Assembly (NCBI RefSeq): GCF_025526975.1
Contig: NW_026515696.1
Span: 186,001-250,000 of the forward strand
Length of the DNA: 64,000 nucleotides
Direction: 5' to 3'
Source: Fimicolochytrium jonesii
Lineage: Eukaryota
Below the pieces are notes generated by a model. The model made no database searches, was not told the origin of the DNA, and worked only from the letters and a program-made list of their open reading frames with translations. Position numbers and translations under genes: made by a program. Below, in pieces: positions 6,630-61,047 of the stretch; position 1 is the stretch's first letter, and each line of letters starts with the position of its first letter.

Positions 6630-6649
6630 GAGCCGAGAGCCTCCTAGTC

Positions 6650-8862: not shown

Positions 8863-8908
8863 TCCTCAACAATTTCCATAATAACAGCCTCACTGCAGGT
8901 AGTTTCAC

Positions 8909-10640: not shown

Positions 10641-10679
10641 CTTCCCAAGTTCAAGCACGAGATTCTCTTCTCCAAAATC

Positions 10680-15937: not shown

Positions 15938-15938
15938 C

Positions 15939-16432: not shown

Positions 16433-16434
16433 AA

Positions 16435-17532
16435 GCGCACCACCACAACGTCAACACGACAAAGGTCGAACGTCAATCGCATACAAAATTGGCGACCTCA
16501 TCAATCTAAATCGGCAAGGGATCAACCTAGAAGTAGACGCTCGAAGAGGACTTCGATACTCAGCCACGTGCTTCGGACCATTCAAAATCATCGCACTGGG
16601 AGCACATCCTGATACCTACAAACTCGATTTATCACCATCGAAGATCGGCGGCATCTGGCCCATCTTTCACGTCGATATTTTAAGGCCACATCGCAAAGAG
16701 CAATATCCGCAAAGTGCAGTTCCACAACCTCCTCCACCAATCGAAGAACGCGGACAACCTGAATGGGTTGTAGAAGATATCATCGACGAGCGACGCGCCG
16801 TACAAAATCTTTTAGTCAAATGGCTCGGTTACCCTGACCCTACATGGCAACCCGAATCCGCACTTCGCTACATGCCTGGCTACAAACGACGGCGTAAAGC
16901 TCATCCACAATCTTTGTGGATCCGGAGACGAACAGCATAGAGCATCTCATATCACATCACATGCGCAACGCCGCAAGAACCGCTAACTACCAATCACACC
17001 GCTGACAATAGCGACGTAAACTACATTACATCACGCGCGGCGACGCAAGAGCCGACCTTACACAAACACACATATCACACGACGTCGGCTTAGGGACGCC
17101 TTTGCCTCAAACACACACATCCCACAGTGCGTCAACACTATAAAATGAACAAGTGCATCAACACCATAAAATGAACATGAGCTCTCCCTTTATTTACATA
17201 TCCCTTGTAGTTCACCTCTTATTTATTCGGCGCCCTCCTCAGGATCTGAGGGAGGTTCTGGAGATATCTCATATATTCACTTGTATTTCATATTACATCT
17301 CTTTACTTCTACTTGATCCGAGACCCAGGCTGGCCACCCGAGCTCTCGGTGACACATTACATCAGGCGCCAAGCCTCACTGAAGCCACGCAAGCCCCATT
17401 GACAACCCATATATAAAGCTGTCAGTCGAGCGGCCGCTGCAGAAAGCTTTTTACTTTTTTCTTCAATACAATACACTGCTCGCAGCCCTCTCAGAAGGGC
17501 CCAATATCGCCTACGTTTCCTCTGACGTTACA
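16435..17532 (+). mobile_element. Chromovirus (Ty3/Gypsy) integrase C-terminus with chromodomain, purine tract and 3' LTR (about 17259-17532)
   Basis: FGPFKII..PDTYKLDL..IWPIFHVDILRP (GPY/F motif), EWVVEDIIDER..LVKWLGYPDPTWQPESAL (chromodomain), then gagggagg and a TG...TTACA-bounded segment. Confidence 0.85.
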
Positions 17533-19143
17533 GTTTCTAACGGTTCTAGGACCCACTGCAATGCGTAAAGTGGGGTTAGGGTTAGGGTAGTATCCTAACC
17601 TGTGGTATTCATGCACTTCTGCACTTCCTTAATGCACATGGGCCACCCTTCCATTACGTTCAGGTTGACCGGGATCAATTAGCTAAACTAGGTGCGGGGA
17701 ATGCTGCGGAGATGGATGATCCGATGGACTTGGACTGAGGTTAACCAGGAGGGGATTCTTCCGAGGAGGGTTAGGGCGCATTTCATAGAGAGGAAAAGGC
17801 GTATCCCGTAGTTTTAACATCCCATACTTTATTAAACATCCTGTAGTTCAGCTGTACTGTAATGCTGTAATCCCAGTTCAGCAGTAATGTACGTATGTAC
17901 AGCACCACAACAAAAGGGTTACGGTTGTAGGGTTAGGGTTAGGTTTCCGCACGCGCGTTACATATCTAACAGTGGATTTACACCATTCTGGTGTACTGTG
18001 ATGCATTCAGAAAACACTGGCGCTTTGGCACAGTTAAATCTTGCTTTCCCTGCAGACGTGCAGGTAACTGGTTCAATTCACACTCCCAGACAGCTTCTTT
18101 GTTCAGATTATGACCCCTGTCGAGCTAGGCGCGGCGTGGTAACTACTGTCGCGCTTGGCGCTTCGTGGGTGTTAAATGAACAGCACAACTAAGTACCGCA
18201 ACAGAAAGCTACCTTAACCAATCCTCAAGGCCTTACCCGCTCTCAAACAGCTCGAGCCACAACCATTTTTGCTCTGCCTCACGCTCCATCTCGACGGGGC
18301 TCTGGGGAAACCAGCACAGCCCATGCAGGTCGACCTCCCGCATGCGGCGGTCGTGCTCAACATGGGCCGCAAGATCAGCGTATAGCAAACATGCCCAGAC
18401 CGCACAGCCCATGCCGGTCGGCCTCCCGCAAGCAGCGGTCGTGCTCAACATGGGCCGCAAGCCCAGGCGGTCAACACCCAGTGGAGACGCCCACAGCTGC
18501 ACAGCCGCCACTCCCCTCGTCAGCCCTGAGCATGCTCGGAGTGTGCTCTGTGTGAGTTGCCGGGCTTGAGCTGGAAGGAGGTGGGCGGTGGCCAGGGGGG
18601 TGAGGGGGCTGTCGTCCGCACCGAGCGCTTGACGTTTTGTGTGAGAGGAGGAGAGTGTGGTCTTGGAGATGCGGCGATCAGCAGCAGTGTGGACAAGCCA
18701 CCACTGCACCACGACTGTGCCTCACCGCTCTCAGCCTCAATACCACAGCACTAACGTGAGTTCTTTGACCTGCAACACCGGTCTCGGCTGACTTAAGGCA
18801 CAGCACAGCCATCATGTCATCACACCAGGCGCTTCAGGGGCACCTGTGGGGTGGCTTCTTTGCCGGAGTTACCACACCACGGCGGAAGAGGAGGAAGGTT
18901 GCTCCGGTTACCCCGCGGTTGCCCATACGTCTGCCAAACGCTGTGCAGCCAACCGCTGACACCATTGCAACCCCCGCAATTTAAGTTCCCACCTTCTGTC
19001 CATCGCCACTTGCCCGAAGCAATTGCAGACATGGTTAGCGAAAGTTCCGGCGATGAAGACGGGCGGCACCAGCAGCGAGGGCTTTCAGCCGTGGACAGGG
19101 ATCTGCAGCGCCCACTGAACCTCCCCGCGCTGTAGTATTGCGC

Positions 19144-19637
19144 TAAACGGCGCATGAAATCGATAACATTCCGATGCCGATTATACACCTAGAATCTTCG
19201 ACAAGCGAAAGAAATCACCTTTATACGACAACATCAAAATACCGTCAAAACTTTCGACAATAAATCGACACACTCGCGTTCCCGACATTCCGACGATTAC
19301 CAAATACAACTCCCTTTACCGAAACCTTGCTTCACAACGACGTTTTGTCCTCGGATACAACTGATATGCGAAACATGTAGGCATAGGAGAGGATCTCACA
19401 CATGAAAGCAACCCCGACCCGACTCTCAACCAACCAGAAGCTCCCATGACGCCCGAAACGCTGAAGAAATCACCTGCGAAACAAGAAAACCAATTTCCAG
19501 TGGCCGTATACGCCGAACGTTGCAGAAAACCCCGAGAAAAGATTAGCGATAAGACTGTATCAGCGCCAAAATTGCGAATGGAAAAAGGAAAAACTATGTA
19601 GACCGCCGCAGGAAAAGAGAAAAAGACCCCGACGTAG
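19144..19637. repeat. Right arm of the ~490-bp inverted-repeat pair
   Basis: Reverse complement of 15939-16432; lies immediately upstream of the Fanzor locus. Confidence 0.9.
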
Positions 19638-19979
19638 CTAAATCCTCTAGAGACGACTAGTAGAGAATTTGGACTTCCACAAAATCCCGTAGCCTAGAAA
19701 AATCCATATAAAAACCCAACTGTTTTGCCCAGACCTTTGTACAACACGCAGAACACAGATCCCGATCAACAACAGAGCTTTCTACTTCTCTACTCCCGAC
19801 GACTTCTTTCAGTTTCAGATAGACTTTCAAGGCGCGCTCATAGATCCGGAGAGCTTAGACAAGACGACCCCGACTGTCGCAACTTGTACTTTGCTGACGT
19901 CGCCGAGGACTTGGTAGTTCAGGAATCCCGTAAGAAGAGCTGAGAGTGAGATTGTATAACCCTGTTGTTTTGTTTTGTA

Positions 19980-22590
19980 GTCAACCCCGCAGATATTCCT
20001 GATTTCGTACCCGTACCCGTAATTCCCGACCCCATATTAGAAGAAGGACTCCTTTCAAAGCACCTGGATATTAAGGTTGCAAGACAACGCTCTCCCTTGA
20101 GATCTTTTCTTGTGCTATTGAGAGACTGGCAGCTTATTTTTCCCGAAACCTGACCGTAAACCCGTATTCAACAGACCCTCGCTTCTGCCGGCCACCACCA
20201 CAGCGCCCATCCCTTTCCGTTTTCCCAGCACACCGGGTGGATCCCTAGTGTATGAACCCCCGCCACCACCACCACCAATTCAACGACCCCGCCCACAGAC
20301 ACATGCCAGCACCAAGGTTTTGCTTCACCGAATCCATAATCAAAATCAAGTTCAAAGGGAGCGCCTGACAACATTCATCGGCAATGTTCACATCCTTGCG
20401 CGCCACACCACCTTCTTTCTCAAGTACTACCTTGGTGAGTCTTTGAGGTGCACTATATATTTCCCATCAAACATTGTCCTGACTGCTACGTCTGCTCACC
20501 GCAGCTGATCATCCTCTACACAATTTCCCGGACATTACCGACAAGCACATCAGTGTGATATTTGAGCTGCTAAACAATCCAGACTACAATGGCAATCCAG
20601 TCATTGCGCAAGAGTTGCGTCCACGGGTTCAAGACTACTGTGATGTTCACGGATTCGCCCCCATCCGCATGCAAAATTGCCAACAGACCGCAGCGTACAC
20701 AGCTACGAGCATATTCACAAACCTCAAAGTCAACGTACAAGAGCATTTCATGCAAATGTTTCTGCGCTACGTCAATGAAAGGCTTGGCTTGAAGCAAGTC
20801 GAACTGCATCTCCGGAGAGGGCAGCGGTGACACTATTATCAGCGTGTCCGCCAGGTTGCAAAGTATGCAACGTTTGAAGAGTTTCCAACCGAAGAGGAAT
20901 TTGCCCGCCTCACACGACTCGAGCGGACTGTCCTCAACAAGTTATGGGCTCTGTTTCCTCCCCAGGATGAACCGCTTGCATACAGCCTTGCAGTGGACGC
21001 AATGCCATATTTAGGTGAGTTAGTATATTTCCGCCCCCACCCCCACCCCCCGGCTTCCTCTTTTGTCTAATCATGGTCCGCACCTGCCTCATCACAGGTG
21101 CCTATTGTGAGCTCTCACGCCTCTATGAGCGCCGTGGAATGCGGCTGTTTTCGGCTATCCCGCTGCGCAAACCTTGAATCCAGTCATCTGTTCGGATGGA
21201 CACGCTGATCCTAGGCACTCATATCCTGGATTTCGGCCAACGTCGCATGGGGAAACTCACCAATGAATGCAAGCGGGAGCTGTGGGGGCAGTTTCTCAAT
21301 GTGAATGTCAGTTAAGTCTGGATGCTTTTGCGCTTATTTCAATCACCTCGCTGAATGACGGATTGCAGGACAAGGTCTTCAAGCATTGAAAGAAGCTTGG
21401 TCTCAAATTTGATGGGTCAATCAGCGCAAACGGGTCTTCCGTTACCATCCACTTCAAGAAGCCAGGGCTCAAGTATGGGCATCGGGCCTGCAAGCGCAGC
21501 AAGGCCAAAATGCGGGAAGAAGTCAAGCAGCTGTATTTTGAGCACCACATTGCCGAACTGAGGGAGGCTCCAAACATCGTCTGCATTGGTCCGGGCTAGC
21601 GTGACCTCTTGTTCTGTCGAGACATCAAGAAAGAGCGACCATTTTGATATCTTTTAGTGGATTACTACTTTTGACATTCCGTTGCAGCATCCTCACAATG
21701 CACCACCCCGTATCAGATACACATCCAATCAACGGGCGTTTGAGACAAAGTCTTGGTACTTTTGAGAAGACATGACAGAGCAAAAGATTAATGCCAGCAT
21801 CACTGAGATGGAATCCCATATCCCATTGCACAAGAGCATGAACATCGAGGCGTTCTCAGAGTTCATCGTGGATTACGAACATGCGGGTATGATGTTCTAC
21901 TTCAACTTTGATTTTCAACTTTGGTAAAACATGGGCTGACATCCATATCCCAGATCCCGCCCTGGATGAGTTTTACCAGGATGGGATTCATGTGGCTCGC
22001 AGATTTAAGGCGTTCTCACTGTGGCAAAAGTCTGAGAGCAAGCTCATCAAGAACATGCGACGCCTGTATGGAAAGCATTTTGCCGTCATCTTGGGTGATT
22101 GGAGCGATGCTGGAAAGACCATGCGCTTCCAGGAGTCATCAAAGACCAAAGGGTGAGTGACCATCATTGGTACTATGTATTATAATATGCTAACTCATCA
22201 TGGAAATCAGATTCCGCACACTCTTTGCAAGAAACAACATTCCGTGTTACTTGCTAGACGAGTATCGAACGTCCTCCGTGTGCCCAGACTGCCACGGCCG
22301 TGTCAAGAAAAACATCCGATGCCGGCTGTCATCTCAGCCGTGGCTTGGTGGGTTGAATGGGAAGAAAGGGAAGAATGGAATTTGTCCATGGATTGGTGGG
22401 TTGCCCCAACCCCGAATGTATCAACCAAGACTGGACGCCATTTGAGATTCCTGGAAGACAACCACTACGACTACGGATGAAAGTGCACAATTGGGACGTC
22501 CTAAGCACCAAGAATTTCCTCTCGATTGTGCGTTCGGTGGTGTTTGGCATTGATGGCCGCAGACCAGACGCATTCTCCCGTAACCGGTAG
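19980..22590 (+). pseudogene. Fanzor1 (TnpB-derived RNA-guided RuvC endonuclease) gene with about 6 introns, inactivated; 5' boundary approximate
   Basis: Spliced translation gives TNLKVNVQEHFMQMFLRY, FSAIPLR, FDGSISANGSSV, YTSNQRAFET, QKSESKLIKNMRRLYGKHFAVILGDWSDAGKTMRFQESSKTKG, LLDEYRTSSVCPDC, VHGLVGCPNPEC and NWDVLSTKNFL..RPDAFSR. These are collinear with SpuFz1 as I recall it. Several in-frame stops are present, and RuvC-I reads IGPG* rather than IDP. Confidence 0.92.
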
Positions 22591-31456: not shown

Positions 31457-32452
31457 ATGGCCGCGACTGCAATGGTGGAGTTCTCGACGTGGATCTTCAA
31501 TATCAGCACAAAGAAGCAGGACGGCCGGATTGCCCGGTGGATTAGGGATGGAACAGGGCAGCTCACGGAGGAATCAGTGGAGGAAATCAAGGTTTTGCGA
31601 CTCGATCAGGAGGTGGAAAAGACGGTTTTGCCTGGTGGAGACGGAGCCGAGACTGGTGGTGGCGACGTGGGTGGTACTCGGGCCATCTCCATTAATCAAG
31701 AACGAAAGTTAGGGCATCATCCGAAATCCGGCCCTTCAGAACCCGCCTTCAAGATTCCGCCCTTAGAACTACCGACTCCGATGGTGGCCCCGGTGTACCC
31801 TTTGAACCTCCCGTCGGAGAAGATGATCTTCTGGAACCTGGAGGATGCAAATGCCGACAAGCTCTACCTATTTGCCCACATGGCTTGGTGCGAGGAATGT
31901 GGTATCATGATCGGAAGCGGATGGAAGGGGAGTGCGAGGAAAGCGAAATGCGACCAGTGCAGGAAACGTGTAAGCCCAACCAAACTCGATAAGCACAAGC
32001 TCCTGGTCCATTGTCAAAATCTGCTCCAAAAGCGCATTTCCGGCAAGTTCGCAGACGCATTAAAAAAGCACGCCGGCTTGGTCAACGCGCACGTTGTCGA
32101 CTACGAGACCACCACATCGAAAGCGCGCGTGCTCTGCTTCTGCTTAGGCCGCTTCTCTGCTCTGGGTTGCCGGGGAAAGGGAGCCCACCACCACCGAGAT
32201 ACCTCGATGCGAGTGTTAGAGTTCCTACTCACAACAACACTCCCATCAACGCACTCCGTACTCGCCGCATTTCGCGACAAATGGGTAGCCCGCGCTGAAA
32301 TCTCCGCATGCGACTACCTCATCATGGGAGCCGGCACCCAGGTGGACCCTCTCGACCGGCCGTACGTATTGCAGAATGGTCGGCTGCGTTTTCAGGCCCC
32401 AGTCATCTTATCCGAGCCTCGTGGCCTAATGGGCAATGGCACGCGCGTATGA
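31457..32452 (+). CDS. Hypothetical 331-aa protein with a CxxC..CxxC putative zinc ribbon
   Basis: Long uninterrupted ORF with CEEC and CDQC. I do not recognise a family. Confidence 0.4.
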   Translation: MAATAMVEFSTWIFNISTKKQDGRIARWIRDGTGQLTEESVEEIKVLRLDQEVEKTVLPGGDGAETGGGDVGGTRAISINQERKLGHHPKSGPSEPAFKIPPLELPTPMVAPVYPLNLPSEKMIFWNLEDANADKLYLFAHMAWCEECGIMIGSGWKGSARKAKCDQCRKRVSPTKLDKHKLLVHCQNLLQKRISGKFADALKKHAGLVNAHVVDYETTTSKARVLCFCLGRFSALGCRGKGAHHHRDTSMRVLEFLLTTTLPSTHSVLAAFRDKWVARAEISACDYLIMGAGTQVDPLDRPYVLQNGRLRFQAPVILSEPRGLMGNGTRV

Positions 32453-33684: not shown

Positions 33685-33757
33685 AGCCTCGTGGCCTAAT
33701 GGTCAAGGCGTCTGTCTTCGGAACAGAAGATTGGAAGTTCGAATCTTCCCGGGGTCG
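33685..33757 (+). tRNA. tRNA-Arg (anticodon TCG)
   Basis: D arm GCCT-AATGGTCA-AGGC, anticodon arm TCTGT-CTTCGGA-ACAGA, T arm GGAAG-TTCGAAT-CTTCC, and a T-rich 3' trailer. The first acceptor-stem pair is imperfect (A:C). Confidence 0.9.
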
Positions 33758-35199
33758 CATCAGTTTATTTCTTTTCTTCCATTTTTGTCAGCACACTGCT
33801 GACTGTGATATATCAACCTGCAGCAGAGGCAACTTGTGAGTTCAAGTGGCTAGGGGTGTTCTGCCACGACCACGGTCTAAGGATGTATGTACGGTGGGAC
33901 ACATGAGGAAACGGCGTCTTGTCACCTTTTTTTTTTACGAACGAGCCTCATGGTCTTCATCCATCCACAGCGGCATTCCACGCGTACATCCCTCCCACAT
34001 TACATTGATATCCAGAAAACACCGAAACGGCACTCGGCCGAGTTTGCTTTCGAAAACCAAGGCTTATAGAACGTTTCATTTCATCAAAAAGAGGGATCCC
34101 ATCGGAGGCTTTACAACGGGGTGGGTATGTACACAAGGGGATCATATATCCGTTTACAGTGCTTTTGTTTTCGAAGGAATCTGTATGTATGTATGTATGT
34201 ATGTATGTACGGAGGAAGGTCCCACGGGCGTTAGGGATAGGCGCAGCACAGCACGTACGAGCGAGAGATTGGATGTCCCGACGCAGCATCAAGCCGGTCC
34301 TGGTGCGCCGCGGTTCGTCGCCGATACCGTGTCGAGGGAAGTGTTGCGGGGGGGTATCTGAACCATCGACCGAGCGGAGGTTTTTTTTTACAAATGAAGG
34401 AACCGCAACACCCGTCTCCTGACGCCCATCCGCGCGCGGTTCTTTGCATATCCGCCTGTTCGAACCGACGAAATGAGCACATCAGTGAGCGGATTCGACA
34501 GACGAACGACGGGCAGTAAACTGTACTGTACCAGGACTCCGCTTGAACGCCAACACGTTCTGGACTTTCCAGAGGATGCGTTGCAGGCCGTTGACTTTTG
34601 ATTCTGTTGTCATTTTTTCTTGGGGTGTATATTTGTTTGTTCCTTTGTTCCGTTTCTCTGACTTCCCCGTGAGAGGTTTGGGGCTCGGTGTGTGCTCTGT
34701 GGGTTGAGTTGAGGTTGAGTGTGTTTGCGTTTTGGGGTGTCCGTTCGGAGGTGGATGGAGGTTGGTAGGTTTTATACTTCGCTGAAAGGGAGCCGGCGAC
34801 AGCCAAGGAACGCAAGGAAGGAGGGCTCAGCCACATGGCTTGCGTCGCTTGCGTTGGTGGCGTGTGTCGTCATCGCTGCCAAACTCGAACATCCTTAAGA
34901 GTGACGCTGTCGAAACGCGTGACGTACGCGCTGTACGAAAGCGCTTTCCGAAGGTCAAAGTTCGAAGCGGCGCTCAAGGGACAGAAAATAAGGAAGCATT
35001 CTGGATGGAAAGCCCATGAAGAAAAAAAAACACGCCGTCAAACCAAAGAATGTAAAGAGCACGACGGAAAGCGGTAACGATCCAGTCTAGAAACATACAA
35101 AATGGAAACAGCGGGGCCAAATGGGATACACCAACTACAACAAGGACACTATGCTAACGAAACATTCCAACCCCGTCAACACAACCGCTCTCCTCTATC

Positions 35200-39753: not shown

Positions 39754-41713
39754 ATGTCGTCCACCGCCGCCGCTACCGCCGCAAGTAGTGATACCCCTGC
39801 TGGTGCTGCTGCTACGGGATGCTTCCAGCTTACAGGGTCAACCGCTTGTCCGGATTTAAGTGGGATGTGTAAGTATGAGATACCGAGGTGGGATTGGTCG
39901 TGGGAAGACGGCGAGCGCGGGGGATCCAATGCGCTTGTGGATGCGCTTGCGAGGGGCGATTGTAGGGAGAGAAGCAAGGTCTAGGGGATGCCTGAGGGCT
40001 AACGCAGTGAAGTTGCGAGCGGAGGGTGTTTCGCGCAGGCGCACGAGACCTGGGAGCGCGCAGCGAACGGTCGTTTTCACTGTGGGAGTTGGGAGTTGGG
40101 AGGGTCGTGGGAAGGTGCTGTGTGTCGATTCAGGGGGCCTGGCAAAATGGACATCTGGACACCCATCGCTCAATGACTATCTCTTTCTCTTTACAGATGT
40201 CGCACCACTACGGAACGGGTTCAACGATGTGGCCACATTCGACAAGTACATCGTCAGCAATACGAAGCCCTCGCCGGACTACATCTCCACCTTCAGATCC
40301 GCATTCTCCTGCCCAGCGTTCGACGGTACGGGCCAACGCTACGCCACATCCGTGCAATGCTTCTTCTTTGTCGCCAAATCCGGATGCGCCGAGAACCCGA
40401 ACCCGCTCCCCGCCTCCGACACCCTCTGCCAAGCCCCATGCCAGCAGAACGTCGCGGCCAACCGAGCCATCCTCTCCAACACCACCCTCTGCACCTCCAA
40501 CCCCGCCGCCGCCGCCGGCACCAACCGGAAAGACCTCACGGCCATCGAATCCTTCTGCTCCACCCTCCCCACCACATCCAAATGCTCCAAAGGCCTCCGC
40601 GCCGAATTCGCTACCTGCGGATTCGCAACCCCGCTCGAAGCCCAACGCTACTGCTCCACCCAAACTGGGAAAGCCGACCCTTGCTGCATCATGGTCGCCT
40701 CCACCGCAGCCATGTCCGCCGGCGACCCGGGCTCTTTAGTCGACCCCATCAGCGCCACCCCTTACATCGCCTCAGGCCTCGCACTCGGCGGAATGCTCCT
40801 GGGAGCCACTCTCTTCTTCTTCTACGTCAAAGTCCGCCGCTGGAGAAGTGTCACAACCACCGCGATCCAACCAGGCGAGAACGAAATCAAGCCGGGCACG
40901 ACGCTCGGACGTACGGGTACGGTCGTCCGTGGCCGCATGGACGCCGAAGACGGCCCTTCCTCCTCCCGGGGAAGGTTCATGAACACTGTCCGGAAATCCT
41001 TCCTCGGGCCCGCCCGCTCGACTACAATCTCCCCCGCCGCACCCGGATCAGGACCAAAACAACAGTCACTGAACCGTCCACCGCTTCAGTCCCTGAACCG
41101 CCAACCGCCTATGTCCATGTACTCCGACTTCAACCCCTCCTCCTCCAACAACAATGGAACGTATCAACGCAATTCCCCCACACCCCCCATGCCAGCCATC
41201 CCACCCCGTGTACGTAACGCACCCCCGGAATTCTCGCTCCCGGTCCTCCCAACCCAACCGGCCATGATGGAAACCTTCGAGAACCGCGCACCCTCCATCC
41301 TGCCCCTCGCACAAACAATGACGGTAGTCCAGACTTACGAAGCACAAATGGGCGATGAACTAACGTTGAATATTGGGGATGTTGTTAGCGTGGATGAGGA
41401 GTTTGATGATGGTACGTCTTATATATCATATCCCCTTCCCCCTGTCTTGCCCCCCTCTAACACCTATCTATTTATATCATTAGGCTGGGCAGTCGGAACA
41501 AACCACACAACCTCCACCATCGGCGCATTCCCACTCTCCTGTCTCGAGCCGGCCTCCCCGCAGCCCTACCCGGGTGACAACAGCGATGAAATGGATCCGA
41601 GTGTGCGCGCATCGGAGTTCTTCTCGGCGTACGCGAGGCGAAGTATGCGGGATGGAAGTGGGGTTGTGAGGGAGCGCGGGGTTAGTTTGGTTGGGATGCC
41701 TAGGGGGAGGTAG
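39754..41713 (+). CDS. Cys-rich ectodomain, single TM, C-terminal SH3-domain membrane protein
   Basis: CFQLTGSTACP, a Cys-rich region, TM segment YIASGLALGGMLLGATLFFFYV, and SH3 VVQTYEAQMGDELTLNIGDVV.V.EEFDDGWA.G.N.....GAFPLSCL. Introns lie at about 39868-40197 and 41412-41483. Confidence 0.85.
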
Positions 41714-42422
41714 ATATCTTTGAGGACACGGCGTAATTGGGGACGTCGGCCCGTGACATTCCTATCATGAAGCAGACATATCCACCCACCGCATCATCAT
41801 ACATTTGTACATTCTTCTTCGACACCCCATGATCTGAACATCAACCACCATCTGTACATTTCTTCATCTGTCCCAACAAATCTTTCTGTAACCACTTGTA
41901 TATAGACAGAACAACATATAAACATGAACTTTTTTCAAGCTTTGTCGCGAATGTGTTTGAGGCTTTTTCGGGTGTGAGTTATCGGTTTGTGTTGTTGTTG
42001 TTGGAGGCGGTTACGAGAGAGAAGACAGGCAGCCACCCATGGGGGCACTTGGAAGTTTTCCGACAGCACCAAGGCTCGAAGCTGACCTCTCAGAAAGAAT
42101 CGGAAGGTGAGCTTGGATGTCCGAAAAACCGTGAGTTGTACACGGACCGGGGGGGGAGGGGGGGGGGGGGGGCGGGGCAAGACTGAGCGGAAGAGCAGGA
42201 GGGGAGGGTTCGATATGTCTCCTCGCAAATGAATGGAAACGATGGAAAGGAAGGAGCTGCGACAAGGTACAGTACACTGCGTATCCCGTCTACAGCCACA
42301 CACACCCATCCAAACACCATCTCTCCATGTCCAGAAGGCCATCGTCAGCAGGAAATGTCCGTGCGTGCCGCGTATTGGAGTTAACCAGGTTCAGTGGGAC
42401 GATCGTTTCGGACACTCATCAA

Positions 42423-42827
42423 TGTCCGAAAACGCGAACCTGACGCGTGAACAAAGACATGGGCCCTTTTCCCGTGTTTTTTTCTCATCTCCCTGTGCCA
42501 CGCACGCATTCACCAACCATGTCAGTTGTGTGTCCACGCTTTGTCAAGTGACCGGGCGTAATCTAGAACCTGATATATACCCAGCATTCGTCAAGCAGCA
42601 TTTCGGACGCTGGTCCAAACTGCGAAAGTTTCGGCTGCTGATTCACCGAATGGGGGAAGGGGTCCGATACACTCATAAACGCATTAAGAACAACCCCCTG
42701 CTCATCCGCCTTCACCCTGGGCGCGTATCGTTTGGTTACTTGTCCCAGCTATCTGTCCGAAAACGCGAAACTGACGCGTAAAGGACGGTGGGTGTGGGCA
42801 GATAGAAGAGGGCCCCCCTTCCCCCAC

Positions 42828-42858
<31 letters not shown>

Positions 42859-45800
42859 ACACGCACGGTATGTTCTTCACAGTGGTCTGGTGGACTCTGC
42901 CTGTGGTGCGCCCCGATCGCTTCGTAAAATCGATATTTCCGATCCGTAAAATAAATACCATCGGCCACTTCGGGAACTTTACCGCAGCGAACTTAGGGCA
43001 TGTGTTCCCACAAGCTTGTAGCCCCCGAACACGCGAAACTGACGCGTGATAGTCGGGCTGCCTCCTCCTTTCGCCCTTCCCTTCCCTCCTCATTTCCACA
43101 GGGTATTGTAATAACACACCGCCACGGAAATTCCACTCATCAACACCGATACTGCATCTGTAAGTCCGTCCAAAAAGCGTGAGTAAACCGCTCGTGATTA
43201 TCCCCGCTTTTGAAATAGTTCGTGACATTATTGACGCTGTTGAAGACCTAATGCAACCACGGTCTCAGACTAGTCTCGCTCTGATGCCTCAAATGTATAT
43301 GACAAACTGTGTGTGTGCGCCGCATATCGTAATTAGGGAAGGAGAACCTTGTCCGAAAACGCGAACCTGACGCGTAGATATTTGTTCGGACCACCCCCTC
43401 TCGCCTCCCCGCCTGTCCTTCTCCCCACCCCCTATCCTTCAAGTTGATGTAAGCAATCCGTTACGGGTATCTCATTCGTCATCACATCTGTACATGTAAC
43501 TCCATGGTGAAAGACCCCTTTGTCCGAAACGGAATGCGTACCACGGAGAATTCAACTCCGAGACGGCTCTTCCGGCAAGATAGGACTGGGTGCGTCCCGA
43601 CTCCGAGACCCCAACTCGCTGTAAAGAACAAGATGGTGCGAGTCCCCTGCAGCAGCAGTGCATGTCAGATGTACATCCCCCAAATCCAGTGAATGAGTCG
43701 GGTCGTGCGTTGGAAGATTTGTATGCGTTTAAAGAATGATTGCAGGAACAGAGTGCAGAAAAAATATGGTCTAACCCCTAAGGGTCGCCTCGAAACAGAA
43801 AGTTCACTTTTTTCCATCCGTTTTGCGGCCCCTGAAAAGAAGCAATAGCCGGCACACGTAAGATGCAATAGCCCGTCGCAGCCGGCAGTTTCTTTCGCCG
43901 TCCTTTCTTGTACCTCTCTCTCCCAAACCTGATATCAATGGAAGCCGCCGGAGGAGCCGAGGGTTGCAAAGACTTTTCACCGTTTGAAAAATGGGTGTGA
44001 CCGCCATACCTCCTGAGGTCTTTGAGGCAGGCAACCTGACAGGCAACCTGACAGGAGACGACAGGAGTGCAGTCGTCTTAGGCCATCTGAGGGACACCAC
44101 GTGACACGCACCTATTCCACCCCCATGTTTTGAGTAGTTTGGAGTGATCTCTCGACCTTTTTGGCGTACCTGATGTGGTCAACCGGCGCATCAGCTCTAG
44201 ACGGCGGCAAATAGTCATAGACATAGATAGCTCTGAGGTTGGAAGGCTCCCGTTCTTTTGGTCACAAGGATAGCTTATAGCGTCTATGAGCCATACAGAC
44301 ATCAGCAGAGCTTGGGAGTAGTTGCGGCTAAATTGGAATGAGCTCAACCTCCATCATTGTGCACCCCATGCATCCGTTTCTTCCGATAATGTGCCCAACA
44401 CAATTGGGAACTTTGTCCGAAAACGCGAAACTGACGCGTGGATGGGCTTAGTCAGCGCAGTACGTTTGCCGGACGACCATACGTCATGTTTTTCGCAGAA
44501 TGGGTCAAAGGTGGAGAGGGCACGGGCAGAAGATCTGGAAGGGGGGAGGGGGGCGGACAATCCGCACCAGCGGTACCGATGTCTCGACACTCCCCACTTT
44601 CACGTCCAAAGCTCGCGCTGTCGGGGGTAAAACAGGGAGTGCATAACCCTTAAGGGGGTGTTAGCACACAGATGATAAAAAACGATAACCCATCCGTCTG
44701 CGTTCCTGTACGAAATTTGGGAAGGCCCCACCGTACGGAACTTGAGTCGGGAACGCCTCTTCGAGCGTGTCGGAAGACGCCACAATCTGGGTTGGGTTGG
44801 TCAGTTCCGTCCTGCTTTCGCCTTCACTTTCCCTTCCTGCTGCCCGGCCCCTTTCTCTCACACCACCCTCTGATAAGTGCGCCACGGAGAACCTTCACTC
44901 TCACTACGAAAATCGTGTACCGCGCATATATCAAGCAAACCATGTAGTCCGAAACGCCGAAACAGACGCGTCCGTGTGCTGAACGGGTGTTTGTACAAGA
45001 GGCAGAGGGGAGGAAGCCCGGCTGTTCATTCACCTTGACGGTATCCGGGACAGTTAAGAATTATGCACTCATGCCACGACTACCCAGTCCCATAGGCCCT
45101 TCCACTTCTTGCTTTTCCCAAGAGGTTCGCCCAAAACGCAAAACTGACGAGTGAAAGGGGGCCTCCTTCACATTTTACCATCACCCCTTTCCCCTGTTCA
45201 CCCCTTGCACTATGCGCCACTATCCATACGGGAACTGGCAAATGCGGTGTGCATTTGAGGGAAAGCAGGAAATCCCCTTCCCCAAGACGTGAACCTGACA
45301 CGTACGTCAATGGGACTACTTTGGAGTCCGTGGGGTTTTCGAGACAGCCGCTCTCCGCCGAGTGTAAACCACCAAAGGTCGGCTGACAATATTTACAAAG
45401 CACGGGCACTGCCCGGGCCAGTCAGAAATGGGAGGATTCACTCATGAACGGCAATGTAACCTCGTTTTCCGGTGGGTGATCGAGGACCTGACCCCGTCTG
45501 GTTACTTCGAACTATTGTCCGAAAACGCGAAAGTGACGCGTCCAAGAGAATGGTTGGGAAAACACAAGAAGGTCGCTCCCTGCCGCTGTGTGCGAGAAGT
45601 TCGCTCGGGTCATTAACATCTTGGGCCCCACCCAGGCCCGTCACGATGTGGATGATCCACCTATGAGCAGACTGCGATTCCCACTGCTCCACCCCTTTTG
45701 CTTTCATCGGGGGCTGGGCATGTGTGTTGTCCGAAAATGCGAAACTGACTCGCTTTCTGAGCGCGAGCGGTATGGCGTATTCCGGATGGTGTGGGTATAT

Positions 45801-48322
45801 ATATATATATATAGATAGTTGCTAACTACGTACGCTACCCGTGTTTGCTATCCACGCTACCTTTAAGCACACATACTTTAATTGTTAAGTGGATGGAAAC
45901 TATAACTTGCAGCCCCAGTTAGGGTTAGGGTTAGGATTAGGGTTAGTAACACCCAGCCCTAACCGGCCGAAGGCCGCCCCAAGCGGAGCGTGTTGTTATG
46001 GTAGGTTAGTTACCCAAAAAGTCACCAAGTCTATGTCGCTTATTATAGTGTGAAGTGGAGGGTAGCGCGGTTAGCAAATTCCGTTAGCAACTCCCTATAT
46101 ATATGTACATATATATGTGTCTCACACATGTAAGGAGGACAGTGGGAACTATGCGGTAACGAAAGAAGTTGGTCGCTTGGGCAAGCGGATCCTCAGATCC
46201 GCGTAGAAAGGCCTGTGCGTCTCTCAACAGAAAGTGTCTATAACCATCCAAGATCGAAATCTAGGAGCCGACGCGTTCGTTCGCGGGCTTACATGGGCTT
46301 TTCGTACATTTGCCATCAAGCACCTCTCCCAACACGTCCCACACCACACACCGTGCGATCCACATAACCAGGTTGCGAAATCCCGGCGGATCAACTCATC
46401 TGAAAACGCGAAACTGACGCGTACATCCAACGGCCTGATTACACGTAGGCTGCTCTCTCTCCTGCTGCCAATCAAACAGTCCGCATTCTCGTATGAGCGA
46501 GTGAATATGTATGTGTCCCGTACGCCTCCATTGAGTCATGAGGAAATTTGCGACCGCCCGGTCGGCTGCCCCAACTGTCGTCCGAAAACGCGAAACTGAC
46601 GTGTAAATCGGTATGATCTTTCAGCCCTAGCCTGTCGGTTCACGGGCGGGTCACAATCGGCGTGTGTATATGTACATCTATATTCAAAAATAAAGTGCGA
46701 TAACGGCCGGGCAAGCCAGTTAGCACATCCCACCCGTGCAGATGTAGTCTATGCCTGAAAACGCGAAACTGACGCGTCAACAATACTGTGGTATTTGAAC
46801 CGCCCTGTGCAATATAGGAGTTGACTCGCCTATGCCCTGTGGGCCAGCCGTAAATACTCTTTCCACTCAAACCTTCCGCCTCCGGCCGCGCTTCCCCGCT
46901 CCCAGCAGGTCGACGAGATGTGTTTTCCCGAACTGTTGTCCGAAAACGCAAAACTGGCGCGTTCTGTACATGTACATTTCTGGCGTCTTTCGCACGGCGT
47001 AGGTGGTAATGTCTTGATTCCGCTGCTGGGCAGTGGGCAGATAACAAAACGCACAATGTACAGAGGCCCTCGTTGAGTTTGCACCCCGAGCACATTGTCA
47101 AAAAGTCTTACACACCTAAACAAAGGGCTTGCGGTCAGGGCATGGATCGGCCCCACTAACGTGTTTACGAGGGGTGGTATCACTCTGCCCCGGTGAGCTG
47201 CCAATTCACTGCGGCTTTTAGTTGGAGCAGTCCTCAATTTTGAATCTCCCTCTCCACATTTCAACTTCTGTCAGAAAACGCGAAACTGACGCGGTCAGCC
47301 TGTGTGCGTCTTTAGGCTGACTGGTCAGCCTTGTGTGCATCTTTAGGCTGACTGCGTCCGCCGGAGTTTGCATGCGTTGGCTGTAGGTCGGCCGGAGGAA
47401 AAGGAGCTTCACTGTCATCTGCCAGCAGAATGTCCGAACACAACATCTCCGCCTGTCCGAAAACGCGAAACCAACGCGTCGCCCGATGAAGCTGAGAAAC
47501 CCGCCAGAAAGAAAATTACCCGCCGGCCAAAGGAGAGACAACCGGGTGCCTTCCTTGCTCCTCTGCTGCCCTTCACGCCCTTTCCCAACGGAAGCGCAAG
47601 ACTGGATGCGTTCGTTGAGGCGTAAGTCTCGGCTCCAGATCAAACGCTTCTTGTCCGAACAACCCGACACTGGCGCTTGGTCTGCGGGCATTTTTCAACG
47701 CGCCTGTGAAGCGGGGTGAACCGTTCCACACCACTTCTCCAGTTGCTCAATCCGTATGAAGTCCGATTTACGGACTTACTCACTTGGCGTTGCATACAGT
47801 CTGTCCAGTTAAAGCGTCATCGAATATAACGGGAGTGCTCTGACGGTTGACGTTTTTGGTTCCCGCCTGTCCGAAACGGCAAAAACGCGAAACCGACGCG
47901 TCCTTGGAGAAACTCGGACATCGTTCATGCTTTCCGTCCGAAGGCACCGTAACGGAAAAAGACAGAGGAAGGGCCACGGAACTTGTTGTGGGCACATACG
48001 GGGTGGTTCTTGTCACAGAATGTGAGAAAGTTGCGCGATTCCCGCGCCCATAACTTTGGTCAGTCCATTCGATCCGCTGTCCAGAACCTCCAAGACGCGA
48101 AACTGACGAGTCGGATGGAACCCGCTCATGCGTTTCCAGCGAAGGATCGACAAGGACGATATGGCAAAGGGAAGGGCCGGTGTAGTGAGCGTGTCCAGGG
48201 TCAAGTGACGGGACAACCCACCGATCATCCTCCAACTCGAACGCGAGACTGACGCGTCTCTCCCAGCCTCGGTCCGCTATTGTGAATTTGTGAGAAGTCC
48301 AAAGAACGCGAATCGGACGCGC
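42423..48322 (+). repeat. Interspaced direct-repeat array: about 21 copies of TGTCCGAAAACGCGAAACTGACGCGT with unique spacers
   Basis: Copies start at about 42423, 42754, 43022, 43350, 44414, 44946, 45127, 45278, 45516, 45728, 46397, 46579, 46752, 46937, 47269, 47454, 47652, 47868, 48086, 48232 and 48296, all on the + strand. Weaker copies lie between them. Confidence 0.95.
45814..46095. mobile_element. MITE-like element in a (TA)n tract, with internal TTAGGG repeats
   Basis: Imperfect TIRs gatAGTTGCTAAC..tttgctatccacgctacc and ggtagcgcggttagcaaa..GTTAGCAACTccc, flanked by TA runs on both sides. gttagggttagggttaggattagggttag lies at 45918-45946. Confidence 0.7.
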
Positions 48323-49002
48323 TCGGAAGAGGGGATTCGTTTTGCGGTACGCAACAGACTGTGGGGAGGTGTCCAAAGCCAGGAATAAGAAAGCGAAGGG
48401 GCCAGCTTCTTGCCAGATTCTTGCCAGTCAGTGTATGTATGAGGAACGGGAGGCTTCGAACAGGGAATTCCTCAAAGGGATTGTAGTTGAGGGATGTGAT
48501 AATCACTGGTGCATCAAGCGTGAGTGGCAGATGCTCCTCGAAGAAGGTACAGATGATGTTCCCGCCCCAACTGTAGTTGTGCACCGTCGGGGCCGGCGAC
48601 GCCTGAGCACGCTGCCATGCCTGAAGTCCGAGGGACAACGCGATGAACGGGCCGCAGATGGACCTGTGGACCGACGAGGCCCGGAAATGCGAGCATCCAT
48701 CGTCGTCCATACATAATCCCGACCCACCGCCAACGCGTGGGGCGGGGTGCAACGGCCGACGAAGTAGCATCTGTTCCGTCGTCTCCGCATCTCCACTTCC
48801 AAAAGAACCATCCAAATCTCGCCAAAGTAAGTCATATATCAAAAAAAAAAGAAAAGTGGTATGTATATCACAAAAACCCCCAACTTGGTATAAATCAACC
48901 CAAAAAAAAAGAAGGGAATATCCAAAATCCGGCTTGCGCATCTGTTGCTAGTTTAATTGCCCACACTCCCCCCCCCCTCCCCCCCCCCCCCCCCGGTCCC
49001 TT

Positions 49003-52000
49003 TCAAGACTCCAAAACCGCCGATTTACTCGGACTCATCCCCCTCCCTCCCGCCCCCCCGGCCTCATCCCCCAACCCCTCGCGACTCCTCCCCTTCTCCT
49101 TCGAGACGTCTTCGCGGGATTTGATCTTTTTCTCTTCCGTGGCGCGCCGTTTGAGGCCGCTGAAGGCCGCGAGGAGGGATGAGGAGGCTGTGCGTGATTT
49201 TTTGCCTGGGACAAAGGGGTGTTAGGGATGTGTGTGAACGAGACACGGGTTATGGCGGGGGTTATGGCCATACCTCCTTCGTTATCCGCCAGACTTTCCG
49301 CGGAAGAATTAAGGGCCGTCGTTGAGCGTCTCGTCGCCACTGTGTGAAAAAAAAAGGGAAACAAGCCAATCAATCCCCACATTTTTTGAGTCAACCCCCC
49401 CCCCCCCCCCCCCCCCAAAAAAAAACATATACAAGCCACACATACCATCCAGACTCTCCCTCGTACTCTTACTCCGTCCCAACTTCTTCCCTTTCTTCTT
49501 CTTTGCGTCCTTCTCCTTCTCCTTCTCCATCTCCTCTCCCGGAGTCACATTACTCCCACCGCTCTTCCCCCTCCCGGTCTCCGCAGGGTCCGCCTCCGCC
49601 CGCTTGTGGGTACTCCCAGCGCCGTCGGTGGTATGATCCGGCACGCTCGCGCGTCTCGCCAGCACGCCTCCCAGGGACGTAAACACGCTCCCCCTGCGCG
49701 GCGGCGGTTGTTCCCCCGGCAGCTCCGCCGGGTTCTCGCCCGACGGCGTCGGCGGCTCGGACATCAAGCCCGTGGACGGACGATGCACGACGGGACTCGC
49801 CGCGGCGCTGCTCCGGTCGTCGTTCGCGTTCACGGTCCCGCGTTTGCTGGATTTGGACGCGGTGGCGCTGGACGAGGAGGCCGTGGCGTAGTCGCGCAGG
49901 ATCTCGTCCATCATCGCGTTGCGGGTGCGGTGGTGCGGTTTTTGGAATTTGGGCGCTTTGTACGAGGCGTTTTCGCCGTTTATCACTATCATTAACAAAA
50001 AAAGGCGCTGTTGAGTTACCCCCGCCCCCTTCACGGTCACCTGGCACCACTGTGACTACCCCGTTGAACTCACTCTTCCCCAACAGAAAATCCCTCATCT
50101 CCGCCTCATCCCAAAACACGGGCGGGGTGGGCAACGGCGGGCCGTAGGGCGGGACGTCGACGTTGGAGGCGAGCACGACGCGGTAGCCGATCTTGCCGGG
50201 GCGTGTGTGCCGGTCTTCCTGCACGGCGATGAAGATGTGCAGGAACTGCGATTTGATGGATTTGGGGTCGAAGGGCGTGTCGCCGTCTATGAATATGATT
50301 GCTACGATATCTGAAAAAAAAAAACGTCACGCGGATTAGTATATTTTACCATGTATGATTATAAGACAACATGATTTGATTCGTTTTCATTTTTGTTTTT
50401 TACCATTCCCAATATGCCTCTTCCGCTGAATCTGCTGGCGATCCTCCTTCTTATACGGCAGGAACGTCGACACGTGGTACATGACCTCAAAGTGTCTCCA
50501 TTTGGTGTACAGCGACCATTTGCCCGTCTGGCCGTGCTTGGTGTCCAGACCCGCGGAGTAGCCCGTCCATGTGGAGAGATCGATTTTGTCGCCGATGCGT
50601 GTGAGGAAGCGGTCGAAGGCGGGGGAGCCTGTTTCTGTGGGGGGGAGGGTTGAGGTGTTATATTGCGGGTGGGTGGGTGGCGATGGGGATGAATTCAGGG
50701 GGTGGAGGGATGTGATAGTAGGAAGCGAAAGGCCGGCGCTTACCATTCCCGAAAAACTCCTCCTCAGTCGTCTGTCCCGCCTTACAATACAGCACGCCAA
50801 ACTTATACCTCGTAACCGTCTCCAAAAAAAAAGGTCATCAATCCCCATCCTCCCCCGCCCTGTTCTCAAATCCCAAGACCTACCAACAACTCATCCAGCG
50901 CAACCAACCGCCTCTCAAACCCCTCGCCCGCAACCTTCCTCAACTTCCCCGGCTGTATATCCCTATGCAGCATCTGCAGCGCCGCCTTCACATCATGTTT
51001 CGGGTTCTGACGGAGCACGGAGGAGGCGGTTACCCGCGCGGCGTCGATGACTGCGCGGAGGGGTTGGGCCTACATCAAATGGATATCATTGTTCAGAGAG
51101 TCGGTAGACGGGGGGGAGGGGGAACTATGAGAACGTTACGTCTTTGGTCCGCATGATAGCCCAGAACTCTGCACCCTGGTCTTTCTCCCCGCCCTGGCCG
51201 CCACCCATGCTACCCCCGACGACGGCGGGCGGGCTCTGTGAATACGGCACGTCGGCTTTCTGAGACCCGGGCTTGTACATCAACGAAATGATGACGGGGC
51301 CGAGTTTGGGCATATCGCCTATGTAGTTTCGATGTTCTGTCCAAATCACAAACGAAACAATAGACTTGTCAATCAACAACCGACAGACAGAAAGATAATC
51401 GGGTTTGGTATGACGTACCATTCCCAAGAAAATGCCGCCGATAGTACCCTGCATCCTCATCCACATACTCCAATTTATAACTTCCGTACGAGGGGTCTCC
51501 CTCCGCCGTAGTCGTGTCGGCAATGGTTCCGGTGGTGCTCCGCAGCCCATTGTCGGGCCCGATGGCTTCGAGGCGGAAACCATCTGCCGTTTTTATTATC
51601 AGCTGAAGAAGAAAAAAAAAGCGAGAGGTCAATAAGTGTGGTGTGGTGCGAGGCGGGCGAAAGGGGGACACGCAGACATACCTTCCCCTGAGCCTCCACA
51701 TAACTACTAACAACCTTATCGGCCTCATGCACGGTCTGCAAGATCGCCTCCCTCAGCTCCCTCACCCCCTTCCACCCGCCCTCCTCAGCGCCCGCAATCT
51801 CGCGTTCCGCCTCGCGCTCCTTCGCAGTCAACTTGACAGCCGCGGCCCTCAGGCCACCCACAGGGACCAGACAATTCGCAATCTCCATCAGCTTCCGTAT
51901 CGACTCCATGATGCCTCTGAACACCGTCAACGCGATGTTGGTTTGGTTTTTCCGCGCGTTGAGGTCGGATGTGGACGCGGCGGTGGTGGGACGGCGGGCC

Positions 52001-58866: not shown

Positions 58867-61047
58867 CGGTGTATCTTCCCGCGCTCGGCAGAGGAGTACA
58901 CGCCTCAGAGACCGTGTTCCAGTCCCACTCCCAGCTCCGCCACCATCATCGCTTGTGACTTTTATCGCTCACGCATCCACTGGACGTTCGCTGGACGTGA
59001 CAGAGATGGGGTACAAATACGGTACATCTGCGCTGAGATGTGGGGAGGCGCATCCATCCATCCATTCATTGATGGGTCCGTGGCTGAGGAACGCCAGGTC
59101 TGTCATATGTCATCCCACCCACATTCTCAGCCTAGTCAGACCACTTCGGATTTCCGTCGGGGGGCTGAGGAACAGACGACTCCGACAAACAGAAGCCGCG
59201 GAGGGTCGGAGAGCAAGGAGACACCCCGGGGCTGAGCATGGAGCTGGAAGCATCGACGCGTAAGACACCTGGGGGTTCGCTCGGTAACGTCTCCGCCCCT
59301 TGCTTCCGGGCTCCTAAGTTCACTCCTATGCGGAACTTGCAGTTTTGGAAGGGCGGGACTGGGAATTGACAGTGACAGGCTGTCAAAGGTGCGTGGTTAT
59401 GGAATGGACGTGGGGGCATAACATGTAGGTGAGGACAAATGGGCCGGCCGTGGGGGAAGGGAAGTGGTGTAGTTCGATGGATGGGGGTGCGCGGGAAATG
59501 AAAAGGGTAAGAGGAGCGGACGTGCGGGGAAACAGGATGTCTTTCGAGTATTCCCTCGCCAAAGGTGCCGCAACGCACGGCCCGGCCACCTTTGGAGGTC
59601 GAGGGGGGAAGGAGCGTCGGCAAGGGACAGACATTCCCATGACGGTGTGTTCGACCAAGGAGGAAACCGGCGAGCTGAGCACCTACGACGGTTTTTGGGT
59701 CCTATGCGCGGTTTTTTCAATGACACGTGGATCTATCATAGAAGGAGAGGAACGGGAGGGACTTTCTCAATCACGCTTGGATGGAGGTTTTGCAAAGCAC
59801 ACCTTCGTCGAATGGAGTGGGTCGCCATGATCTTGAGGGTAACTTACACAATGACATTGGACAAACAGACCGCTACTGGTGTTAACCAAAGATATCGTAG
59901 CTGGAAAAGGTCAGATTGGCACGAACACTCAGGAGGGATCGGGACTAGAGCAAAAGTTTGTACAGTACATGTAACGTACACCGCGCGGACTAAACCGGTC
60001 AGTGCGCTCTGATGAAGTCGCGAGGCCCGGCTTCGGTGGTCGGGAGAGCACCCACTTCGTCGATGCATGGAATGAGACGAGCAAGGAGAACAAAAGGGAG
60101 GAAAGAGGAGGAAGAAATGGATCAGTCATCTCGTAAAAGGTATCATGAACGGCCCGGCAGCAGCCAATCATCCAATATCCACAAGTGTGCCGAAAGCCTC
60201 TAAACGCTAACCCCGACGGTTGTTCACGGAAGGGGGCCGGGAGAAGAGACCACTCTTTTTCGCAGGCAAGAAAATTGGCCGCGTCGAACACCCCTGCAGT
60301 GCCCACCGTAGCACAGGTGTATGACACAAGGGTCACAGCACGCCAGATTCTAATCTGGTTCGTGGAGAAGAGTACCCAATGCAGCCGTTGACGACCGACA
60401 ACAGGAAAGGCGACTAGAACGCTGATCCCCAACGGTTGTTCACGGAAGGGGACCCGGGAGCAGTACAGTTTTTATCGCAGGCGGCCCAGAAAGGGGATGC
60501 CGTGCGCCTGATGACCGTGCGGGTCTCACAGAGACGAGGCCCGTGAGGATACGGCACGCCAGGAGTGAAACCAACCACGCCTGATCCCGGCAGGAAGCTG
60601 GAAAGTCTCTATGAGTCCGCTTTTTGCCTTTCAGACACTAATTTTTCTGATGACGGCTTTTGGGAATCTGTAGAGGTTCAGACGCGTGCAAACGTGCGCG
60701 AAGGAGAAGACGAGGTAGACGCCAAGCACGCCCCCTAAGACTCGACTGCTCCTGCCTACTGCCCTCGACCTACCACTAACTGCCCTGCGACAATGCCACC
60801 CACTGACAGTGACGGGAAGTCGCCAAATGATTGTGCTGGATCTGAATGCCGGAGCGACGCGTCAAATAAGTGGACGATTTTAATGTGGAGATTCAGGTTG
60901 CACGTGATCCCCAGCATTCTTAATGCAGATGAGATATCCCGACCTCACCCTCCGTTTCGCCGTCCCATGGCCTTCCACTCTCCATAGCTTCCCTATTTGT
61001 GTATCCCCGAGAACATCAGGAGCGACTCATATCGCTCCAAGTTCAAC

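Follow-up and report, generated by a model that had tools for sequence, protein, structure and literature searches.

A regularly spaced array of a conserved 26-nt box in the chytrid Fimicolochytrium jonesii, a candidate protein-bound chromosomal locus

In alpha satellite, an oriented CENP-B box recurs in units of about 170 bp, frequently in one of every two, and the monomers stay alignable across megabase arrays. There, these boxes seed kinetochore chromatin. Other centromeres with DNA motifs are known. The centromeric repeats of Meloidogyne carry a 19-bp box in monomers of 45–83 bp that are 56–73% alike, and are bound by CenH3 on holocentric chromosomes (PMC8097292). The mosaic centromere of Mucor circinelloides, an early-diverging fungus, has one 41-bp motif per core of about 941 bp, the cores averaging 71% AT and lying in 15–75 kb of retroelement DNA (10.1101/706580). 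Malassezia has small regional centromeres of 3–5 kb (PMC7025860), and the IR-motif of Candida tropicalis is placed in inverted arms, directed outward from a central core (PMC7292649). Here we describe an array of 21 copies of a 26-nt box in Fimicolochytrium jonesii, a single locus within a window of 64,000 nt, the whole stretch of DNA analysed (RefSeq assembly GCF_025526975.1, contig NW_026515696.1, positions 186,001 to 250,000).

The array takes up most of a 7.3-kb intergenic gap between the stop of an SH3 gene (+, 41713) and the stop of a RapGAP gene (−, 49003). It is real: the boxes are on the same strand, they are conserved against spacers at chance level, and their spacing is regular. They are likely a row of landing sites for a DNA-binding protein. 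The reading that we favour, at somewhat short of an even chance, is an ancient tandem repeat of which selection has kept nothing but a box for protein binding, at a structural chromosome locus. One part of this reading, which we put forward tentatively, is that the array may be a chytrid centromere defined by its sequence. It would then be a G+C-neutral 6-kb lattice in which each nucleosome has one 26-bp box and the spacers are free to vary, a form intermediate between the point and the satellite centromere. The other part, a different structural role (boundary, condensin or cohesin loading, pairing site, or polar fork barrier), is unlikely taken by itself.

Copies and conservation of the box

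Searching with the 26-nt consensus gave 12 sites with at most three mismatches, all on the plus strand, and none in 100 shuffled sequences. An ungapped weight matrix from 20 copies scored them at 18.5–43.4, values to be read in view of its training on the very copies it scores and of a peak of 18.0 in 30 shuffles; the top site elsewhere in the window reached 9.2. A gapped profile contributed the 21st copy, at 47652–47678. At a profile score of at least 12, the interval 41720–49000 contains 21 plus-strand sites and no minus-strand site, with 0.3 expected per strand. The strong boxes span 42423–48322, and the rest of the window holds no copies. An initial annotation of this DNA had counted about 21 same-strand copies between the two gene ends and none elsewhere in the window, and the consensus search, matrix and profile bear out both statements. 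Tandem Repeats Finder called no satellite array of this kind here. The array and its strong boxes are as follows.

42423–48322, +, complete array: 21 strong boxes and further decayed ones, set on a lattice of about 177 bp
42423–42448, +, box 1: strong
42754–42779, +, box 2: strong, identical to the consensus
43022–43047, +, box 3: core strong, 5' end diverged
43350–43375, +, box 4: strong
44414–44439, +, box 5: strong, identical to the consensus
44946–44971, +, box 6: shifted by a small indel
45127–45152, +, box 7: found by weight matrix and gapped profile
45278–45303, +, box 8: has the sole compensatory stem change
45516–45541, +, box 9: found by consensus search and weight matrix
45728–45753, +, box 10: consensus search and weight matrix
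46397–46422, +, box 11: consensus search and weight matrix
46579–46604, +, box 12: consensus search and weight matrix
46752–46777, +, box 13: consensus search and weight matrix
46937–46962, +, box 14: consensus search and weight matrix
47269–47294, +, box 15: consensus search and weight matrix
47454–47479, +, box 16: consensus search and weight matrix
47652–47678, +, box 17: gapped profile only, score 23.8
47868–47901, +, box 18: a short insertion splits the 5' part from the core
48086–48111, +, box 19: weight matrix and gapped profile
48232–48257, +, box 20: 5' end decayed
48297–48322, +, box 21: 65 bp after box 20

Among the 19 gap-free copies, pairwise identity is 86% over the last 20 nt and 50% over the first 6 nt, and falls to 24–25% in both flanks, chance identity being 25%. 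The box hence has a 20-nt core, a looser 6-nt head, a sharp 3' edge and a ragged 5' edge. The contrast between core and flanks counts for selection on the box, as had been proposed. The unit had been given as 26–32 bp, often preceded by AACTnn. The 26 nt hold, and the prefix does not: over the 19 copies the preceding 6 nt are no more alike than chance, so the prefix is weak, and what is conserved is a unit of 26 nt, not 32, with a core of 20 nt. The inverted pair with a 7-nt gap was found again as a pair of 5 bp around a 7-nt loop, and it ends exactly at the conservation boundary. At 42406–42431 the first 9 nt of the box recur in inverted orientation, 8 bp before box 1, the sole head-to-head case seen.

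We also scanned outside collections for the core. Viral contigs held no locus with 19 nt and 18 loci with 16 nt, metagenomes held eight loci, and prokaryote genomes held none with 21 nt. The 26 external loci are each single-copy, most lie within long open reading frames (ORFs), and none can be aligned to the window; for these reasons they are treated as chance matches. As these viral, metagenome and prokaryote collections contain few chytrid contigs, the scan is no test of conservation. No paper printing the box core was found in the full-text literature, whose coverage falls short of subscription papers and supplements.

Spacing, decayed boxes and spacers

The 20 gaps between successive strong boxes measure 331, 268, 328, 1064, 532, 181, 151, 238, 212 and 669 bp, followed by 182, 173, 185, 332, 185, 199, 223, 210, 146 and 65 bp. 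Compared with 20,000 random placements, for which the period was maximised over the same periods, only one gap of the 20 is below 140 bp (p = 0.0008) and 12 lie inside one 100-bp window (p = 0.0009). The best period is 176–177 bp (p = 0.0034), and dropping any one gap leaves it at 174–178 bp. This spacing is new relative to the initial annotation. The short gaps range from 146 to 238 bp, a regular unit length as in satellites, and among the long ones 1064 bp is 6.0 × 177, 532 bp is 3.0 × 177, and 669 bp minus an inserted element (45796–46113) is about 2 × 177. The period of about 177 bp suggests that each nucleosome carries one bound site, but the founding monomer may just as well have had this length.

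Decayed boxes occupy several of the longer gaps. The region has 11 weak plus-strand hits, eight of them between the first and last strong box. Six of these eight are on the lattice, each lying 140–210 bp away from a strong box and no closer than 140 bp to either neighbour. Such places make up 11.9% of positions, and one or two of seven minus-strand controls fall there; both cut-offs (140 and 140–210 bp) were set after the gaps had been seen. The six sites, and one to the left of the array, are listed below.

42118–42145, +, weak box-like site left of the array: score 7.7, alone not significant; different inverted-pair sequence, 7-nt gap kept
42611–42636, +, weak lattice box: score 8.7; neighbours at 188 and 143 bp
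43166–43191, +, weak lattice box: score 5.8; neighbours at 144 and 184 bp
43521–43546, +, weak lattice box: score 6.7; 171 bp after box 4
44580–44605, +, weak lattice box: score 5.6; 166 bp after box 5
44770–44795, +, weak lattice box: score 6.5; 176 bp before box 6; downstream DNA faintly like that of box 3
46251–46276, +, weak lattice box: score 10.6; 146 bp before box 11

The stretch 43547–44413 (867 bp) has no box, even a weak one, and neither terminal repeats nor a second copy in the window was found for it; it is either five lost units or an unrecognised insertion.

The favoured history would run as follows. A monomer of about 150–210 bp would have been amplified head to tail, which would give one orientation and one period. 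Homogenisation would then have ended, and the spacers would have drifted, gaining microsatellites and one small transposon. The box and, roughly, the spacing would have been preserved by a protein or complex that recognises about 20 bp, with dispensable boxes decaying in place. The bound protein is predicted to phase nucleosomes over about 6 kb (about 31 units) and to seed kinetochore chromatin. Aside from the contrast in identity, the array's size and gene-free position speak for this reading, as they fit small regional centromeres, and so does a transposon cluster at 1–23 kb of the window, 19 kb from the array. The Meloidogyne repeats (PMC8097292) are a precedent for a GC-rich dyad box that stays conserved while the centromeric monomers around it diverge.

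A number of points weigh against it. Besides the late choice of the lattice cut-offs, single weak sites are at chance level (about six expected per strand at score 6). The fit of long gaps to multiples is fragile: taken alone, they fit multiples of 177 bp with p = 0.013, of the median short gap of 183.5 bp with p = 0.21, and of the mean of 190 bp with p = 0.72. Gaps of 143–151 bp leave 117–125 bp between boxes, less than the 147-bp nucleosome core (PMC8015243), and one gap is only 65 bp. There is no 10-bp dinucleotide period, no helical phasing of the gaps and no composition profile around the box, and the literature searched, so far as its text was available, gave no published chytrid nucleosome repeat length. 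A centromere or structural protein-bound site was among the candidates first named, and if the 177-bp spacing favours it, the lack of an AT-rich core, one of the two centromere features assessed, does not. The array has 52.8% G+C, with the lowest 200-bp window (42.5%) inside the inserted element; centromere cores of Malassezia have 13–18% G+C (PMC7025860). Genes adjoin the array directly, and Mucor pericentromeres are gene-free over 15–75 kb (10.1101/706580).

The spacers (39–1038 bp) add to these points. In 342 local alignments the mean does not differ with strand (z 0.35 for the same strand, 0.30 for the opposite one), the mean z of anchored global alignments is 0.06 and −0.01, and in-register sharing of k-mers is not significant (p 0.05–0.27). 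Faint likeness exists between a few pairs. The DNA after box 3 and that after box 4 align at z = 5.9 (0 of 1000 shuffles); this pair was picked as the top one among 171, and its DNA has many pyrimidine tracts. When spacers were slid along the window, six of 130 top hits fell in box register with 0.9 expected, as three reciprocal pairs, two of them between neighbours; since reversed-sequence controls match the best spacer scores (up to 11 against 10), these pairs hint at old tandem duplication and do not prove it. The claim that the spacers are dissimilar thus stands on average, with these pairs as exceptions. That 43 of the 130 hits lie within the array is due to masking and composition, reversed queries giving 36 of 90. 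Two short k-mer words that looked like a second spacer motif were dropped because a Gibbs search at widths 10, 14 and 20 stayed at null level. No source of the spacers was found in the window, phages or plasmids. BLASTN of the region against phages and plasmids gave short weak matches only, mostly to a telomere-type repeat.

The array could also be a functionless relic, either a decayed satellite or piled-up ends of a mobile element (such as 5'-truncated relics of a telomere-targeting retrotransposon), with boxes kept alike by gene conversion. The satellite-typical period, the faintly related spacer pairs, the sharp 3' and ragged 5' box edges and the transposon relics in and beside the array would all agree with this. 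Neutral decay, however, cannot leave 86% identity in 20 bp against 25% on both sides, and gene conversion between 26-bp islands in unrelated DNA is unlikely. We further found no target-site duplications at the 21 boxes (mean match 3.9 nt against 4.0 in the null) and no long copy among them, and a 5-nt telomere word was absent from the 14 bp next to every one. Relics of MoTeR elements bear telomere tracts at their 3' ends (PMC8381367); as this tract is absent at all 21 boxes (0/21), MoTeR-type relics were rejected, and a pile of transposon insertions was rejected for want of target-site duplications. We consider a relic improbable. The initial annotation had set its proposals against a mere decayed tandem repeat; a tandem origin is now likely, and it leaves the survival of the box alone unexplained.

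How the box may be read

The inverted pair raises the question of shape against sequence. Changed positions amount to 11 of 133 in the loop and 12 of 190 in the stem, and a loop as conserved as the stem is expected where sequence, not shape, is read. Stem pairs are changed in 11 of 95 cases, of which eight are broken, two become G-U and one, in box 8, is compensatory. Folds of five 38-nt box segments reach z of −0.4 to −1.4, the 5-bp stem being weak, and for the 120 nt that follow each of 20 boxes, folding does not exceed that of shuffles (mean z +0.27 and +0.20). As the loop is as conserved as the stem, the changed pairs mostly break and the spacers fold at shuffle level, the box is most likely read as double-stranded sequence.

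These results bear on a second explanation, a long non-coding RNA with about 21 words for binding protein or RNA, acting whole as a sponge or cut into CRISPR-like pieces. NORAD is an example of an RNA sponge. The single strand, the inverted pair ending at the conservation edge, the compensatory pair of box 8 and the intact pair of the weak site at 42118 are in its favour. We nevertheless hold it to be unlikely, because the stem changes mostly break the pairing, the folds are weak, the 120-nt folds are at shuffle level and Rfam gives no match; an RNA would also not by itself require a 177-bp period. Rfam returned five weak hits, all far under the gathering score, and no tRNA was found in the array, leaving a known structured RNA or C/D snoRNA cluster without support. 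A branch point or cassette exon was considered for the CTGAC word in the box, and the downstream DNA, judged by eye, has no steady 3' splice site.

We then considered growth of the array by a recombinase or integrase, in which nucleosome-sized pieces would be inserted and the site duplicated each time, as in an integron or CRISPR array. An inverted pair around a 7-bp asymmetric core resembles the crossover sites of tyrosine recombinases, and this explanation would also suit the sharp 3' edge, the unique spacers of narrow size range, the rightward fall of scores and the DIRS-type elements in the genome. The fall is found among the 21 strong copies (rho −0.56, p = 0.009) and is lost with the weak sites (rho −0.03, p = 0.88); with the gradient gone once weak sites are counted, neither end stands out clearly as the growing one. 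No recombinase or cas family was found among the 50 long window ORFs scanned against Pfam, in which intron-split genes may be missed. The spacers have neither coding signal nor source, and random captures from gene-rich DNA should often code. Array growth of this type is therefore a slim prospect. The CRISPR-like RNA that had been suggested loses ground, with stem changes that mostly break the pairing, no cas-like gene among the scanned ORFs and a vanishing gradient; a CRISPR array was likewise rejected, since the spacers are not short or constant (39–1038 bp), the hairpin is not kept by compensatory changes and polarity is lacking.

A further explanation concerns the words within the box. It contains the SBF word CGCGAA and the MBF word ACGCGT, as had been pointed out, and its two CGCG cores are separated by one helical turn. 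Both SBF and E2F are present in Spizellomyces (PMC4862756). The array could thus be a cluster of SBF/MBF (KilA-N family) sites serving as a transcription-factor sink or distant control region. Eleven of the 15 CGCGAAA words in the window are inside boxes, both cores are intact in 13 of the 21 copies, and the regular spacing would also suit factors that bind between nucleosomes. On the other hand, the wing of PCG2 reads the CGCG core (PMC4862756), and the 7 nt between the cores and the preceding A run are as conserved as the cores, which exceeds the need of a CGCG pair. The array also lies at the 3' ends of both neighbours and not at the promoter of a G1/S gene, its spacers hold no extra words (0–2 seen, 0.4–3.6 expected), and the strict E2F word occurs in none of the 21 boxes. 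Such a cluster is accordingly given a low probability. A KilA-N-family reader of the box is plausible under a structural as well as a sink role, although two sites of KilA-N type would not by themselves account for the conserved bases between the CGCG cores.

Returning to the old tandem array with a protein-bound box, its consequences depend on the role. Were it a centromere, a single scan with the motif would find every centromere of the lineage, the box would mark each centromere of the genome and would possibly be read by a co-opted KilA-N/APSES-type protein, and a defined sequence would be at hand for plasmid-stability tests in a transformable relative. Centromeres that lack an AT-rich core and carry one box on each nucleosome would then join the known types. 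Were it a protein-bound site of a different sort, the array would still be an unusually clean case of selection on a 20-bp word and a 177-bp spacing with the rest erased.

Genomic setting and comparison with known systems

The array and its surroundings contain the following further features.

39860–41713, +, left flanking gene with C-terminal SH3 domain: the open frame takes in intron sequence
45796–46113, no strand assigned, likely miniature inverted-repeat transposon: sited in a run of TA, contains telomere-type repeats, extends one of the gaps
48414–48699, −, frameshifted internal gene fragment, probably a transposon relic: from a Spizellomycetales gene family
49003–50890, −, right flanking RapGAP gene, 3' part: Pfam matches on upstream exons; the open last frame ends at 49003

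The array had been called gene-free. This holds for its interior: Pfam at its cut-off matched neither 64 of the 111 array-region ORFs of at least 45 aa nor five of the longest, scanned separately, and a crude coding model trained on five window genes scored the array at −24 to −51 per 300 bp. The gene-free stretch of a few kb has one gene relic at its edge, which the earlier statement had overlooked. This frameshifted 95-codon piece (48414–48699, −), 90 bp right of the last box, has as relatives only hypothetical proteins of up to 863 aa in Fimicolochytrium and Thoreauomyces. Its family has no Pfam or ESM Atlas match, and the fragment does not continue into the array. By motif likeness only, it may be a transposase fragment. 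The element at 45796–46113 has 46-nt arms that are 76% complementary and a tandem repeat at 45918–45946, and is likely a miniature transposon. It contains telomere-type hexamer repeats, short runs of which also occur at 17570–17943 in the transposon cluster.

The ratio of observed to expected CpG is 1.01 in the array, 0.88 in the spacers and 0.82 in the transposon cluster. In Spizellomyces, 5-methylcytosine is restricted to transposons (PMC12695648), so the array is unlike long-methylated DNA, the contrast being small. The nested transposon cluster at 1–19640 has long direct and inverted repeats and includes a DIRS-type gag, adenine methylase pieces, a Copia element and a chromodomain Gypsy piece; it could itself be pericentromeric. 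A Fanzor1-like gene at 20300–22590 (+) has decayed: it shows apparent introns and is broken by several stops. Two of its pieces match the Spizellomyces punctatus Fanzor structure 8gkh (E 2e-16 and 1e-9), and its ends show no resemblance to the box. A tRNA-Arg(TCG) gene lies at 33685–33758, with a 29-bp copy of its 5' end at 32408–32436, 1.3 kb upstream. Two non-coding 65-bp copies, 80% alike and 215 bp apart, are at 60203–60267 and 60418–60482. The window's pyruvate kinase is 80–82% identical to proteins of Geranomyces, Spizellomyces and Rhizophlyctis, which places this chytrid within the Spizellomycetales or close to them.

No mapped chytrid centromere, and no such layout in a fungus, was found in the full-text literature, mostly without subscription papers and supplements; a Batrachochytrium assembly paper (PMC11797018) gave nothing on centromeres. 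The array fails the criteria for CRISPR arrays, MoTeR relics, transposon piles and known RNA families, and its nearest likenesses are as follows. With CRISPR arrays it shares direct repeats, here of 26 nt, a short inverted pair and unique spacers; it differs in spacer lengths of 39–1038 bp, the absence of a cas family among the ORFs scanned, a hairpin without covariation, and no polarity once weak copies are included. SBF and MBF sites (SCB/MCB) share CGCGAA and ACGCGT with the box, and their known clusters are a few promoter sites (PMC4862756), whereas here 21 composite 26-nt sites extend over 6 kb between two gene ends. Malassezia (PMC7025860) and C. tropicalis (PMC7292649) have in common with the array a length of a few kb, an intergenic position and a clustered, oriented motif, which in those two yeasts is of 12 bp. 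The Malassezia cores, however, are the G+C minimum of the chromosome, and in place of the inverted arms of C. tropicalis the array has one direction, a longer box and a fixed period. With Mucor (10.1101/706580) it shares a locus-specific motif in a gene-free region of an early-diverging fungus, but it has at least 21 copies over 6 kb, 53% G+C and genes on both sides. Meloidogyne (PMC8097292) resembles it in having short arrays whose units have diverged around a conserved box that is short, GC-rich and contains an inverted pair; the units here are of about 177 bp, with spacers at chance identity. As for alpha satellite, three gaps of 328–332 bp suggest a box in every second unit, as with the CENP-B box. 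Compared with a satellite that has a conserved protein-binding box, the array is an extreme form in which only the box and the period are left.

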